DNA of 39,607 nt from Hadesarchaea archaeon. Lineage in GTDB: Archaea; Hadarchaeota; Hadarchaeia; Hadarchaeales; WYZ-LMO6. This document shows, piece by piece, positions 4,556-21,055 of the stretch. How positions within the stretch are numbered: position 1 is the stretch's first letter; each line of letters starts with the position of its first letter. The DNA lies in assembly GCA_029259185.1 (NCBI GenBank), contig JAPDJF010000017.1, positions 1 to 39,607 of the forward strand, in the 5' to 3' direction. The position numbers were made by a program, and so were the translations under genes. The notes under the pieces are model-generated. The model saw only the letters and a program-made list of their open reading frames with translations. It had not been told where the DNA came from and searched no databases.

Positions 4556-4651
4556 GGGCCGGTGGTCCAGTCGGGACAAGACACAGGCCTCCGGTTTCCT
4601 AGGAATGGAAGGGGAGAGCCTGTAACACGGGTTCGAATCCCGTCCGGCCCG
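4556..4651 (+). tRNA. tRNA-Arg(CCG) with 22-nt canonical intron (37/38) at 4595-4616
   Basis: Acceptor GGGCCGG/CCGGCCC; anticodon stem CAGGC/GCCTG; CCG at 4591-4593; T arm ACGGG-TTCGAAT-CCCGT; BHB with CUCC/GGGG helix, GGU and AGA bulges, UUCC/GGAA inner helix; CCA not encoded; T-tract follows. Confidence 0.95.
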
Positions 4652-4780
4652 CCTTTTTGAACATCAGAAGGAGTTCGAGCTTCAACCGGGCCCCACGGAC
4701 TGCCAACAGAACTAGGGCACTGAAGGGAAGACGACGGGCGGGGGAGAGATATATACGAGTGTTCGGAGTAGCAACATGGG

Positions 4781-9625: not shown

Positions 9626-9760
9626 GGGGCCGTGGTGTAGCTTGGTAGCACAGCGGGCTCCAGTGAAGAATCGTGGGTCTACTGACATCGTGAATGATGA
9701 CCCACTGGAGCGGTGCGAAGAGACCCGCAAACCCGGGTTCAAATCCTGGCGGCCCCACCA
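9626..9760 (+). tRNA. tRNA-Trp(CCA) with 59-nt intron (37/38) at 9664-9722
   Basis: Acceptor GGGGCCG/CGGCCCC, A73, CCA; anticodon stem GCGGG/CCCGC; CCA at 9660-9662; T loop TTCAAAT. Confidence 0.95.
9663..9722 (+). ncRNA. Intron-encoded box C/D guide RNA of pre-tRNA-Trp
   Basis: C GTGAAGA, D' CTGA (9682-9685), C' ATGATGA, D-like GCGA (9715-9718); guides GTGGGTCT and CACTGGAGC are complementary to the two exon-intron junction regions; known architecture of euryarchaeal tRNA-Trp introns. Confidence 0.85.
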
Positions 9761-18547: not shown

Positions 18548-18628
18548 CTTTTTTAGGTCGAGTTTGGAAAGTTAGCCACTTCCGAGAGCGGATAAGAATT
18601 TATGAGAGTTGTTGGAATACTAACTAAT

Positions 18629-18645
18629 GCCGGGGAGTGCCGGGG
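18629..18645 (+). repeat. Tandem copy of the tRNA-Asn 5' acceptor strand in the leader (GCCGGGG twice)
   Basis: GCCGGGG at 18629-18635 and 18639-18645; leader GCCGGGGAG is complementary to CTCCCCGGC at 18779-18787. Confidence 0.85.
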
Positions 18646-18791
18646 TGCTGCCAGCAGCCCGATAGCTCAGTAGGTAGAGCGCTCGGCTGTTAAACCCGGC
18701 ATGGATGAAGAGCGAGCCTCAAAGGGTTGAAACGACATGGCCGGGTACCGCAACCGAGCGGTCAGAGGTTCGAGTCCTCTCCCCGGCGCCA
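18639..18791 (+). tRNA. tRNA-Asn(GTT) with two introns: 17 nt at 8/9 (18647-18663) and 60 nt at 37/38 (18693-18752)
   Basis: Removing both gives GCCGGGG-TA-GCTC-AGTAGGTA-GAGC-G-CTCGG-CTGTTAA-CCGAG-CGGTC-AGAGG-TTCGAGT-CCTCT-CCCCGGC-G-CCA; BHB at intron 1. Confidence 0.9.
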
Positions 18792-18836
18792 TTTTGACTC
18801 GAGAAACGAGCGATAGCTTTATTTCGAATTCTTTCT

Positions 18837-19841
18837 ATGGTAAGCGAGGTTCGGGGAGTGAAAATCTTATTCATATCAAGAACAGAAATCGAAGAGTTAC
18901 TTTTGATGCATGATGTGATTAGAGCAGTTGAGGAAGCTTTCAGGGCGAAAGGGCTCGGGAAAGTTCAGATGCCTTCGAAATCATACGTGTACCTCGATCG
19001 GTATGGGGGGGATTTCAGAGTGATGCCTGCTTACTTGGAAGAATCCGGCGCAACTGGGGTAAAGATCGTAAATGTTCACCCGAGAAACCCGAAGGAGTTC
19101 AATCTCCCAACGGTCATGGCAACGATCTTATTGTTAGATCAGAGAACAGGGGAGCCTCTAGCCATAATGGATGGGACCCACATCACAAACTTGAGGACGG
19201 GGGCAGGTGGGGCCATCGCGGCGAAATACCTAGCCCGGAGGAACTCCCATACGGCTGGCATGGTCGGGGCAGGGATTCAAGCAAGGGCTCAGTTGATGGC
19301 ACTATCGGAGCTATTCGAAATCGAGAGGGTGAAGGTGTGCTCTCGAACTCCTGAGAGTGCCAGAAGATACGCTGAAGAAATGAGTAAGCGACTGGGTGTG
19401 GATATCCGAGTGGTGAGCGAACCTGAGGAGGCGGTGAAAGATGTGGATATCGTGGTAACCTCCACTCCATCCAGGATTCCCCTAGTTCTAGACGAATGGG
19501 TAGCGGAGGGGACACACATCAACGCGATAGGCGCCGATGCTCCCGGGAAAGAAGAAATAGACCCGTTATTACTGAAACGGGCGAAGATCGTTGTCGATGA
19601 TTGGAGGCAAGCTGCGCACTCGGGGGAAATAAACGTTCCGCTGGCAAAAGGGTTGATCACAAAGGACGACATCTATGGGGAACTAGGGGAAATCGTGGCT
19701 GGAAAAAAATGTGGGCGTGCTTCGGAGGAAGAGATAACGGTTTTCGATTCGACGGGACTAGCGATCCAAGATGTGGCCACCGCTTGGTTCGTTTATCAGA
19801 AAGCGAGGGAGGAAGGAAAAGGGTCGGAGATGGAGCTTTGA
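18837..19841 (+). CDS. ala: Archaeal alanine dehydrogenase (ornithine cyclodeaminase/mu-crystallin family)
   Basis: QMPSKSY, DFRVMPAY, GVKIVNVHPRNP, RTGA, GAGIQA, AIGADAPGKEE, FDSTGLAIQD. Confidence 0.85.
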   Translation: MVSEVRGVKILFISRTEIEELLLMHDVIRAVEEAFRAKGLGKVQMPSKSYVYLDRYGGDFRVMPAYLEESGATGVKIVNVHPRNPKEFNLPTVMATILLLDQRTGEPLAIMDGTHITNLRTGAGGAIAAKYLARRNSHTAGMVGAGIQARAQLMALSELFEIERVKVCSRTPESARRYAEEMSKRLGVDIRVVSEPEEAVKDVDIVVTSTPSRIPLVLDEWVAEGTHINAIGADAPGKEEIDPLLLKRAKIVVDDWRQAAHSGEINVPLAKGLITKDDIYGELGEIVAGKKCGRASEEEITVFDSTGLAIQDVATAWFVYQKAREEGKGSEMEL

Positions 19842-19843
19842 AT

Positions 19844-20830
19844 TCATCTTCTCAGTCCTGCGTCCCTGGGGAGGACGGGTGATATCTCCTTTTTCAGGGT
19901 TTCCAAGAAAGTGTCGAAGAGTTCGACCGGGATCGATGCTCCGGCGGCTCCCTCGTGTCCCCCTCCAGACCCACCTATCCTTTCCACTATCCCGCGCAAG
20001 AGTTCGTTGAGATCGATCCTTACTCCAGCTCTCCTCCTTATGCTGATATCAACCTCTTTCTCACTCCTCCTCGTAGCCATCCCTATGTCCGCCCCCGTAA
20101 TTCCTAAGGAATGGAAGGCAGCTTTGCTAAGGGATCCGGATGGAAGATCCAGAACCATGGCTAGATTTCCCTCTTTCATAACGTGTTTTTTCACGTATTC
20201 CCATGTCTCCCATTCTCTCTTCGTAGCCTTCACCGCTCGCTCGATAATTTCAGGTATCTCGGTGGGCGGGGTGTTTTTGGCTAGAGCTTCAACCACATCT
20301 CGTTTGTAATGATAGTCTCCTGGGACCTCACCTAGGGCTTGGCTCAGGAGGCCAGCTTCCATGTAAATCGTGTGCCTGTTGTATTTGTTAAGGGTTTCCA
20401 ACACAAAAGGGGTTTCCTCACAGTAGTCCCCTATTGCCCCCCATAGGGCCACACGATCCAAATCGGGGTCGAGTGAGGATTGGAACAACCTGAAGGTGAG
20501 TTCAGAAGTGCTGGCACCTATCTCATGTACGAACTGAGTTACTGGTACGTCCCTCTTGAGGGTATCGGGGGGGAGAGGGTGGTGGTCGATGTAGAGGATT
20601 TCGTTGTGGAGGGCAAGCTCCCTCATCCTCTCGAATATCTGGTTCTTCTGAGTCTCATTGATTGCGATATCCAGAATTATCACGGTCGTCCCGACTTCGA
20701 TCTCGTTGAGGTCCCTCAGGAGAGTTACTGGTCTCGTGAACCATATCTCTACGTCTGGGAAACTAGCCTTGGCTAGGGCAGCCGAGCACACACCATCCGT
20801 GTCCCCATGGGCCAATATCTTGGTTACCAA
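19844..20830 (-). CDS. DHH/DHHA1 family phosphoesterase
   Basis: HGDTDG, ILDIA, YIDHH, AIGD, GGGH..AAG. Confidence 0.88.
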   Translation of the reverse strand: MVTKILAHGDTDGVCSAALAKASFPDVEIWFTRPVTLLRDLNEIEVGTTVIILDIAINETQKNQIFERMRELALHNEILYIDHHPLPPDTLKRDVPVTQFVHEIGASTSELTFRLFQSSLDPDLDRVALWGAIGDYCEETPFVLETLNKYNRHTIYMEAGLLSQALGEVPGDYHYKRDVVEALAKNTPPTEIPEIIERAVKATKREWETWEYVKKHVMKEGNLAMVLDLPSGSLSKAAFHSLGITGADIGMATRRSEKEVDISIRRRAGVRIDLNELLRGIVERIGGSGGGHEGAAGASIPVELFDTFLETLKKEISPVLPRDAGLRR

Positions 20831-20914
20831 ATTTGACCCGTTTCATTTTGGAGGCCGAGGATTTAATTTCGCCGGCGTCGAAATGCATTATAATCTGATC
20901 GGTATAAAGGAATT

Positions 20915-20926
20915 GGGCCCGGGCCC
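20915..20926 (+). repeat. Tandem copy of the tRNA-Ile2 5' acceptor strand in the leader (GGGCCC twice)
   Basis: GGGCCC at 20915-20920 immediately before G1 (20921); TTATAAT box at 20888-20894 places the likely TSS near 20915. Confidence 0.75.
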
Positions 20927-21055
20927 GTAAGTGGCCAAGCCACCGGGAAGCTCAGCCAGGTTAGAGCGCCCGACAACGTTAGTTGGGCGAAGCTCATAGG
21001 TGAAAGAGCCTGGGAGACCGGGTGGTCGGGCGTTCGAATCGCCCCGGGCCCACCA
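20921..21055 (+). tRNA. tRNA-Ile2(CAT) with three introns: 9/10 (20930-20949), 30/31 (20973-20991) and 37/38 (20999-21016)
   Basis: Spliced form GGGCCCG-TA-GCTC-AGCCAGGTTA-GAGC-G-CCCGG-CTCATAA-CCGGG-TGGTC-GGGCG-TTCGAAT-CGCCC-CGGGCCC-A-CCA; G1G2G3C4 acceptor favours Ile2 over Met; strict BHBs at introns 1 and 2. Confidence 0.9.

Follow-up and report, generated by a model that had tools for sequence, protein, structure and literature searches.

The window analysed here, a 39,607-nt contig (C12) of an archaeal metagenome-assembled genome labelled Hadesarchaea, contains genes for tRNA-Asn (anticodon GTT) and for a tRNA with a CAU anticodon. Both are interrupted next to the acceptor stem by an intron with a bulge-helix-bulge (BHB) splicing motif, and both are preceded by a short leader that repeats the 5' strand of their own acceptor stem. 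Formation of the BHB requires acceptor nucleotides (nt) 3-7 to pair with the intron and is hence incompatible with a closed acceptor stem. The evidence makes it probable that the upstream copy is a cis-acting decoy that, once transcribed, stands in for the 5' acceptor strand. A first-pass annotation of this DNA had proposed a decoy that frees the real 5' strand, and the proposal is supported by the association of copy and intron, by covariation, by joint gain and loss, and by folding models. The acceptor-copy leader appears to be conserved and undescribed; no description of it was found in the full-text literature searched, with subscription papers and supplements lying outside the reach of that search.

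Acceptor-strand copies and acceptor-adjacent introns

A scan of the whole genome (1.27 Mb in 54 contigs, 95% complete, 52% G+C) based on T arm and acceptor pairing identified 44 tRNA genes, four extra matches not being tRNAs. An exact 7-nt copy of the 5' acceptor strand, at most 16 nt upstream, was found for four of the 44: tRNA-Asn, the CAU tRNA, tRNA-Lys (CUU) on contig C3 and initiator tRNA-Met on contig C2. Introns whose BHB engages the acceptor strand were detected in these same four genes only, and copies in none of the other 40 (Fisher p = 7e-6); our own calculation puts the chance expectation at about 0.05 exact copies. Since the Lys and CAU genes share sequence, the four cases are not fully independent. 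Allowing G·U pairs, the best in-register run among the other 40 tRNAs was 6 in two genes and at most 5 in 38. No copy precedes the tRNAs interrupted solely in the D loop (two Gln, Phe), at 30/31 or at 37/38, and the two remaining tRNAs of the window, Arg (4556-4651) and Trp (9626-9757), were confirmed to lack such a leader. A motif-free scan, which required two occurrences of one 7-mer separated by a linker of -1 to 20 nt and, after any 5-bp/7-nt hairpin, the reverse complement of that 7-mer, recovered these four tRNAs and two matches in a protein-coding repeat.

The four genes share a common layout. In the Asn gene (18639-18791), GCCGGGG occurs at 18629-18635 and again at 18639-18645, where it constitutes the real nt 1-7, giving GCCGGGG-AGT-GCCGGGG-T followed by a 17-nt intron and by A9 with the D arm; the leader GCCGGGGAG (18629-18637) and its complement CTCCCCGGC (18779-18787) are present as first reported. 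The CAU tRNA (20921-21055), tentatively taken to be tRNA-Ile2, shows GGGCCC (20915-20920) directly followed by GGGCCCG (20921-20927), TA, a 20-nt intron and G10, and the predicted partner of its leader was read as CGGGCCC at 21045-21051. The Lys gene (C3:43721-43855, minus strand) has GGGCCC-GGGCCCG and introns at 9/10, 30/31 and 37/38, the positions found in the CAU gene, whose introns are homologous to them; between the two first introns, the inner helix differs by compensatory changes. The initiator gene (C2:41244-41415, minus strand) presents AGCGGGG, a 9-nt linker and AGCGGGG, with introns at 10/11, 37/38 and 45/46.

BHB motifs were delineated with the definition given in the accessible part of bioRxiv 10.64898/2026.10.13.758758. 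The scan confirmed the central helices previously assigned to nt 3-6 in Asn and nt 4-7 in CAU: in Asn, CGGG pairs with CCCG between bulges GTG and ATA, and in CAU, CCCG pairs with CGGG between bulges TAA and AAG, with an inner helix of 5 bp. The Lys motif again pairs CCCG with CGGG. Flanking helices, for which at least 2 bp were required, measured 3-5 bp (inner) and 2-3 bp (outer). The strict scan returned no match to the 5' intron of the initiator, which by reading has a relaxed motif (GGGG with CCCC and a 4-nt bulge) and was placed at 10/11 from intronless orthologues. Cuts were placed behind the second base of either 3-nt bulge, a rule taken from the ordinary 37/38 intron of an Ala tRNA on contig C4. 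Applying this rule yielded U8-A9-G10 junctions, confirmed by orthologues without intron, and spliced products of 76-78 nt (76 for Asn and 78 for CAU, including the encoded CCA).

The assignment of the upstream copy as the real exon was considered and rejected. U8 follows the downstream copy alone in all orthologues, with A or G after the leader; the inner BHB helix can be built with the downstream copy alone; and the base preceding A9 at the 3' splice site in genomes of the same family is A, so U8 must derive from the downstream copy. Duplication by integrase at an attachment site was likewise discarded, the repeat being of the 5' strand, with copies 0-16 nt apart and no element between them. 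A loose scan for trailer copies of the 3' strand, the counterpart to be expected for introns close to the 3' end, gave 41 matches in this genome and 28 in the Bathyarchaeial chromosome G041 described below, none of them at a tRNA save the Asn leader, read on the opposite strand.

The tRNA nature of the four leader-copy genes rests on T arm, acceptor pairing, anticodon arm and intronless orthologues. The genome, 95% complete, has a single gene each for tRNA-Asn (GTT) and the initiator, so both must yield working tRNAs. ARAGORN detected none of the four leader-copy tRNAs and, among the four tRNAs of the window, called only Arg (4556-4653), with a 4-nt anticodon. Rfam matched Arg, Trp and part of Asn in the window; of the leader-copy genes, RF00005 recovered Asn partially (34.8 bits, model positions 8-63) and left CAU, Lys and the initiator undetected. 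With three of the four leader-copy tRNAs missed by Rfam and all four by ARAGORN, standard annotation would under-count tRNAs in this lineage; beyond missing such genes, gene finders could place the 5' end at the wrong copy.

Three further genes deserve mention. Upstream of tRNA-Phe (C37:4131-4249, minus strand), TTGGGGG lies at 21 nt and could form 6 bp with the 3' acceptor strand, and acceptor nt 3-7 find a complement in GCCCCC of this gene's D-loop intron. The gene may follow the decoy principle in a looser form, or the match may be due to chance, about four 6-bp runs being expected among controls by our own estimate. The tandem tRNA-Gln genes (TTG and CTG; C13:14961-15303) each carry a D-loop intron, and a leader copy was seen in neither.

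Orthologues, covariation and folding models

Each of the four leader-copy genes was used as a query against 40 related genomes, which belong to an order of small genomes (0.8-2.2 Mb). Among 30 Asn loci, 12 carry the 8/9 intron and 15 have neither intron nor copy (three could not be parsed). The full GCCGGGG copy is present in 10 of the 12, the other two having decayed versions (GCCGGGA, 6/7; GCCGG, 5/7), and the linkers differ between lineages (AGT, AGC, AAAT, GAA, GT). The 30 CAU loci comprise six with the 9/10 intron, five of them preceded by GGGCCC or GGGCCCG-A and one by GGGCTTG, 19 with neither intron nor copy (including all five sister-genus genomes), four unparsed and one initiator tRNA; the leader arrangement is identical in L038 and L046 and includes a 1-nt linker in L044 and L045. 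For the initiator, intron and copy occur together at six loci, with linkers of 7, 9 or 11 nt and one copy reading AGCGAGG, and no copy was found at any of 15 intronless genes. In genomes of the same family, CAU and the initiator lack both intron and copy, and Asn and Lys keep both.

Three initiator loci depart from this pattern. In L134 the 10/11 intron has been precisely lost, and a mutated copy, AGCGAGG, persists with its 11-nt linker upstream of a normal gene. L125 and L127 carry a different intron, at 4/5, with a BHB formed by the two bases before +1 and nt 1-4 and an AGCGGGG or AGCGGGT leader copy 16 nt upstream; the outer BHB helix (2-7 bp) pairs CTACCC of the linker with GGGTAG at nt 5-10. 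Homology of this linker to that of the genomes with the 10/11 intron suggests that the leader was kept while the intron downstream of it was exchanged or shifted position. An exchange of exon between the two copies in these loci was rejected, the BHB scan giving a 4/5 intron with the downstream copy as exon.

A search across phyla, in one genome per prokaryotic species, used a pattern for the GGGCCCG 9/10 intron that excluded the leader. It returned 47 loci, four of which were bacterial chance matches without a tRNA 3' half, and the named records with this tRNA architecture were labelled Hadarchaeota or Hadesarchaea and Bathyarchaeia. In 36 parsed loci from the Bathyarchaeia, the Hadarchaeota or similar, the leader pairs in register with CGGGCCC at 7/7 positions in 33 and at 6/7 in two, and one locus (L106) has no such leader. 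Two of the loci found are nearly identical to others, L064 (labelled Acidobacteriota, Acidoferrum) to Bathyarchaeial L082 and L067 (labelled Hodarchaeaceae) to L045, which belongs to a relative of this genome, and are likely mis-binned or mislabelled.

In the complete Bathyarchaeial chromosome G041 (1.98 Mb), the motif-free scan identified three tRNAs (CAU, Tyr and Thr) and one non-tRNA match. The Tyr gene reads CCCGCGG-GTT-CCCGCGG, with a 9/10 intron and central helix GCGG with CCGC, and the Thr gene has GCCCCGG, a 9-nt linker and GCCCCGG, with an 8/9 intron and central helix CCCG with CGGG. The same chromosome holds a tRNA with an intron inside the T loop (C1:1148679-1148753, minus strand) and a partial tRNA match for which the 5' acceptor strand was not found (C1:1724275-1724330).

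Pooling the Hadarchaeota and Bathyarchaeia gave 56 distinct genes with an acceptor-adjacent intron, in which the leader pairs at 7/7 positions in 49 and at 6/7 in five, the other two lacking a copy and the regular expression used having missed two further 7/7 cases; the genomes being related and not independent, these counts overstate the number of separate events. Pairing at 7/7 was seen in none of 91 control tRNAs, in which nt 9 leads straight into a normal D arm; one apparent control match, L105, was rejected as a misclassified intron-bearing gene. The survey that had been suggested found leaders to co-occur with acceptor-adjacent introns and to covary with the acceptor: each of five acceptors is accompanied by a leader that matches it, GCCGGGG (Asn), GGGCCCG (CAU and Lys), AGCGGGG (initiator Met), CCCGCGG (Tyr) and GCCCCGG (Thr), at intron positions 4/5, 8/9, 9/10 and 10/11.

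Sequence variation within the copy is consistent with selection on pairing. Mean pairwise identity among 11 Asn orthologues is 0.97 in the copy versus 0.39 in the 15 nt upstream of it. Variants of the GGGCCCG copy (GGGTCCG, GGGCTCG, GGGCTTG, GGGCCTG) have internal changes that are all C-to-T and keep G·U pairing with CGGGCCC. Changes from G to A affect positions 1 or 7 of the copies, the ends of the helix, with a single internal case in AGCGAGG, and no transversions were seen in the copies. As the variants represent about seven lineages by our own estimate, the C-to-T skew is suggestive, not decisive. In Asn, position 8 of the leader never copies U8: in 10 of 11 orthologues it can form a pair with nt 65 (A-U, G-C or G·U), and it shifts from A to G where nt 65 is C. 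The inner helix of Asn intron 1 also shows compensatory changes among orthologues.

The precursors were folded with ViennaRNA, with and without the leader as had been proposed, taking as the value for each fold the probability of the least probable of the four central-helix pairs (Table 1). In these models, the leader raises the probability of the BHB about 100- to 10,000-fold or more, removal of the leader abolishes the central helix, and the ranking is unchanged at 75 C. The two G041 genes behave similarly at 37 C (leader present and leader deleted, respectively: Tyr, 0.22 and 0.00003; Thr, 0.60 and 3e-7). In the minimum-free-energy folds, that of Asn included, the leader is paired in register to nt 72-66 of the 3' acceptor strand, extending in Asn to nt 65-64, and leaves the discriminator and CCA free of it. 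The CAU tRNA is the weakest case in these models, and its GGGCCC is also self-complementary, a weakness that the first-pass annotation had anticipated. A further role for the leader, building the outer BHB helix with the D stem, was rejected because it appears only in the minimum-free-energy fold of Asn from this family and is not conserved by other linkers.

Table 1. Modelled probability of the BHB central helix in the four precursors
tRNA	37 C, leader	37 C, leader deleted	37 C, poly-A leader	75 C, leader	75 C, leader deleted
Asn	0.97	0.0002	0.0003	0.81	0.008
CAU	0.15	0.0004	0.0004	0.45	0.002
Lys	0.97	0.0001	0.0002	0.47	0.002
Initiator Met	0.25	0.00002	0.00001	0.25	0.01

The elements of the two genes in the window are collected in Table 2. 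Both genes are solitary in intergenic DNA, beside genes for topoisomerase VI-A, an ornithine cyclodeaminase/mu-crystallin family protein and a DHH phosphoesterase. A search of sequencing runs located DNA matching the genome in hydrothermal-vent metagenomes (five DNA runs from two hydrothermal-vent or marine metagenome studies), and no RNA run holding the window sequence was among the runs matched.

Table 2. Features of the tRNA-Asn and CAU tRNA genes in the window
Feature	Position	Strand	Basis or detail
TATA-like box TTTATGAG of tRNA-Asn	18599..18606	+	direct reading
Asn leader copy (candidate decoy)	18629..18637	+	GCCGGGG = acceptor nt 1-7; next AG complements T-stem nt 65-64
Asn exon 1, nt 1-8, real 5' acceptor strand and U8	18639..18646	+	BHB scan
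Asn intron 1, 17 nt, position 8/9	18647..18663	+	BHB scan; central helix 18641-18644 with 18658-18661
Asn exon 2, nt 9-37, anticodon GTT	18664..18692	+	Rfam tRNA match 18663-18780, model positions 8-63
Asn intron 2, 60 nt, position 37/38	18693..18752	+	direct reading of sequence
Asn exon 3, nt 38-73 and encoded CCA	18753..18791	+	3' acceptor strand = 18781-18787
TATA-like box TTATAAT of CAU tRNA	20888..20894	+	direct reading
CAU leader copy (candidate decoy) GGGCCC	20915..20920	+	with exon G1, full 7-nt copy
CAU exon 1, nt 1-9	20921..20929	+	BHB scan
CAU intron 1, 20 nt, position 9/10	20930..20949	+	BHB scan; central helix 20924-20927 with 20944-20947
CAU exon 2, D arm to nt 30	20950..20972	+	BHB scan and in-silico splicing
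CAU intron 2, 19 nt, position 30/31	20973..20991	+	BHB scan
CAU exon 3, nt 31-37, anticodon CAT	20992..20998	+	BHB scan and in-silico splicing
CAU intron 3, 18 nt, position 37/38	20999..21016	+	direct reading; junction confirmed by orthologues without intron
CAU exon 4, nt 38-73 and encoded CCA	21017..21055	+	3' acceptor strand = 21045-21051

The second intron of tRNA-Asn, at 37/38, is kept across the whole order (about 55-60 nt; 18693-18752 in the window, loci L003-L031). By reading, its BHB central helix has one mismatch. It carries a C-box-like GGATGAAG (GGATGATGAG in L026) and on this basis might encode a box C/D or k-turn RNA; no Rfam match to it was obtained at gathering score.

Transcription start, predicted order of processing and alternative readings

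The leader can act in the primary transcript only if it is transcribed, and promoter spacing bears on this point. Across 40 control tRNAs, the start of an A/T-rich 9-mer box, counted from the mature 5' end, has a median of -32.5 and an interquartile range from -35 to -31, which implies that leaders are normally very short. The iterated 9-mer promoter matrix used was unstable between runs for the initiator and was relied on for the controls, Asn and Lys. The boxes of Asn (matrix site AATTTATGA) and Lys lie at -32 from the copy, and a CAU box, CATTATAAT, at -29 from the copy scores 4.3. By eye, the initiator has CATTTATCC at -33 from the copy, and its orthologues CTTAAAGC at about -34. Reading of the Asn orthologues places the box about 29-34 nt before the copy and, where there is no copy, about 29-38 nt before +1; in the three G041 genes, TTTATATA-like or TTAAATA-like boxes were read about 32-33 nt before the copy. 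The copy hence sits where the 5' end of a tRNA normally sits and is probably transcribed. The TATA-like boxes first noted upstream of the Asn and CAU genes are both present (Table 2), and the start that they were taken to indicate, at the first G of each leader, fits the spacing in Asn and is less well backed in CAU.

Under the decoy reading, transcription would begin with the first base of the copy or close to it, and the real 5' strand and the intron would fold locally into the BHB hairpin. The emerging 3' acceptor strand would then pair with the free leader copy, so that, as modelled, the BHB would not be displaced, and the intron would be excised by a single alpha-type endonuclease. After ligation, the real 5' strand would exchange with the identical leader strand on the 3' strand, and RNase P would take off the 6-16-nt leader. 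Since no acceptor helix ends at the true +1 when the leader is paired as modelled, RNase P would be unable to cut there before splicing, and the model thus predicts an enforced order, with splicing preceding 5' maturation. The genome encodes a full-length archaeal RNase P RNA (223 bits) and one EndA of 177 aa with N-terminal and catalytic domains (PF02778 and PF01974). The accessible text of Kaneta et al. (PMC5829648) attributes to the Hadesarchaea alpha4-type endonucleases with an extra loop and many disrupted tRNA genes. If correct, this reading would explain the splicing of introns whose motif needs a strand from one of the most stable helices of the tRNA.

Several observations weigh against the decoy reading. 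Part of the folding result is inherent in the comparison, since the equilibrium must shift with any strand able to pair with a competitor. When the precursors were spliced in silico with the leader on, the leader was still favoured over the real strand in Asn, CAU and Lys (0.95, 1.0 and 0.95 at 37 C; 0.85, 0.98 and 0.73 at 75 C), the real strand being preferred in the initiator only. As the model keeps the leader on the 3' strand after splicing, displacement would rely on something outside it. Candidates are tertiary contacts within the tRNA, modifications, or an isoenergetic exchange of strands followed by RNase P irreversibly cleaving a minor conformer. The outer, exon-exon helix of the BHB is just 2-3 bp long. 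The transcription start is inferred from promoter spacing only, which is weak for CAU, where a box at -55 scores higher (5.1), and unstable for the initiator, where one matrix run preferred a box 36 nt before the real +1 that would leave the copy untranscribed. In the Micrarchaeota, seven of seven loci have the 9/10 intron without any copy, with a modelled BHB probability near 0, and the decoy is therefore not a general requirement. Bathyarchaeial L106 also has the intron and no copy, L031 matches at only 5 of 7 positions, and in L113 an internal G-to-A change breaks a pair with the intron present. The relatedness of the genomes counted adds to these points.

The copy could alternatively act in the RNA in another capacity, by timing or blocking RNase P or 3'-end processing, by protecting the 3' end or by marking unspliced precursors. 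The pseudo-acceptor helix formed by the leader in the modelled precursor, in which the true +1 would be no RNase P substrate, fits this possibility, as does the leader's persistence on the 3' strand in the model after splicing; leader pairing with the 3' end is described in the accessible part of PMC9433436 as hindering bacterial RNase P. We nonetheless consider such a role unlikely, because it gives no account of why the copy is restricted to introns whose BHB uses the acceptor strand and is lacking where the D loop, 30/31 or 37/38 are the only sites of introns.

It is also improbable that the copy is a functionless scar, a short tandem duplication arising from intron insertion or from copying between tRNA genes and carried along passively. 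Where the acceptor strand is GGGCCCG, the copy directly adjoins the exon or overlaps with it (linker of -1 to 1), as slippage might leave it; the homologous CAU and Lys introns seem to have moved along with their copy; the Micrarchaeota splice the same intron without one; and in L134 a mutated copy has outlasted its intron. A scar would not, however, be expected to remain 97% conserved beside 15 nt conserved at 39% and behind linkers that differ, nor to recur in the same arrangement at five unrelated acceptors and four intron positions. The internal changes of the copy, nearly all of them pair-preserving C-to-U, and a position 8 that complements nt 65 and is no copy of U8 argue against it as well.

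Least credible, and in our view very improbable, is a role at the DNA level, with the copy meeting a start-site or initially-transcribed-sequence need of the tRNA promoter or remaining untranscribed: the copy does occupy the +1 position of other tRNAs relative to the TATA-like box, and the initiator box preferred in one matrix run would agree with it, but an intron downstream of +1 leaves the promoter-to-+1 spacing as it is and calls for no second copy, the variants obey G·U pairing rules on the transcribed strand, and the copy is absent from 91 ordinary tRNAs.

A broader form of the decoy reading can be put forward tentatively, although we lean slightly against it. The acceptor-strand mimic would be of ancient origin and in general use in at least two archaeal phyla (Hadarchaeota and Bathyarchaeia), where it would let BHB introns settle beside or within the acceptor stem, at positions 4/5 to 10/11. 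It would operate as a one-way switch, in which the decoy fold is spliced, the strands exchange and RNase P removes the decoy, enforcing the order of processing and proofreading splicing, and it would be dispensable with endonucleases of broader specificity, such as those of the Micrarchaeota. The three-unit endonuclease of the Micrarchaeota is described as broad-specificity in the accessible text of PMC3239211, and it is a speculation that the hadarchaeal enzyme is stricter and needs a well-formed BHB.

Relation to known systems

Several known systems resemble the arrangement in part. Pairing of a leader with the 3' end of the tRNA, which would affect RNase P access, is shared with bacterial leaders. 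The bacterial leader pairs with RCCA and extends the stem, whereas here the leader replaces the 5' strand, as an exact mimic tied to an intron. In competing-helix switches, such as transcription attenuators and riboswitch anti-sequestrators, a third strand selects between mutually exclusive helices. Unlike in these, the process here is tRNA splicing, no ligand or ribosome takes part, and the switch would be reset by removal of the intron.

BHB introns outside 37/38 are well known in archaeal tRNAs and are reviewed in PMC4090602 and PMC4033280. The introns described here are like them in their 4-bp central helix, 3-nt bulges and flanking helices, and differ in that the helper element lies outside both tRNA and intron; the accessible text of these reviews makes no mention of a leader copy. 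Split and permuted tRNAs (Nanoarchaeum, Caldivirga, Thermofilum and red algae; PMC4090602, PMC4033280, PMC3218864) offer a precedent, in the accessible parts of these sources, for a discarded flank that pairs to make a splicing-competent fold. In those tRNAs, as far as the same text goes, leader and trailer pair together and form the BHB itself. Here, in contrast, the gene is colinear and in one piece, with the exons of the leader-copy tRNAs lying on one strand within 138-172 nt, neither split nor permuted; the BHB consists of exon nt 3-7 and the intron, not of leader and trailer; and the leader would pair with the 3' acceptor strand, keeping that strand off the BHB. A disposable mimic of an exon would, if the decoy reading is correct, join the known repertoire of disrupted tRNA genes as a new class of helper element.

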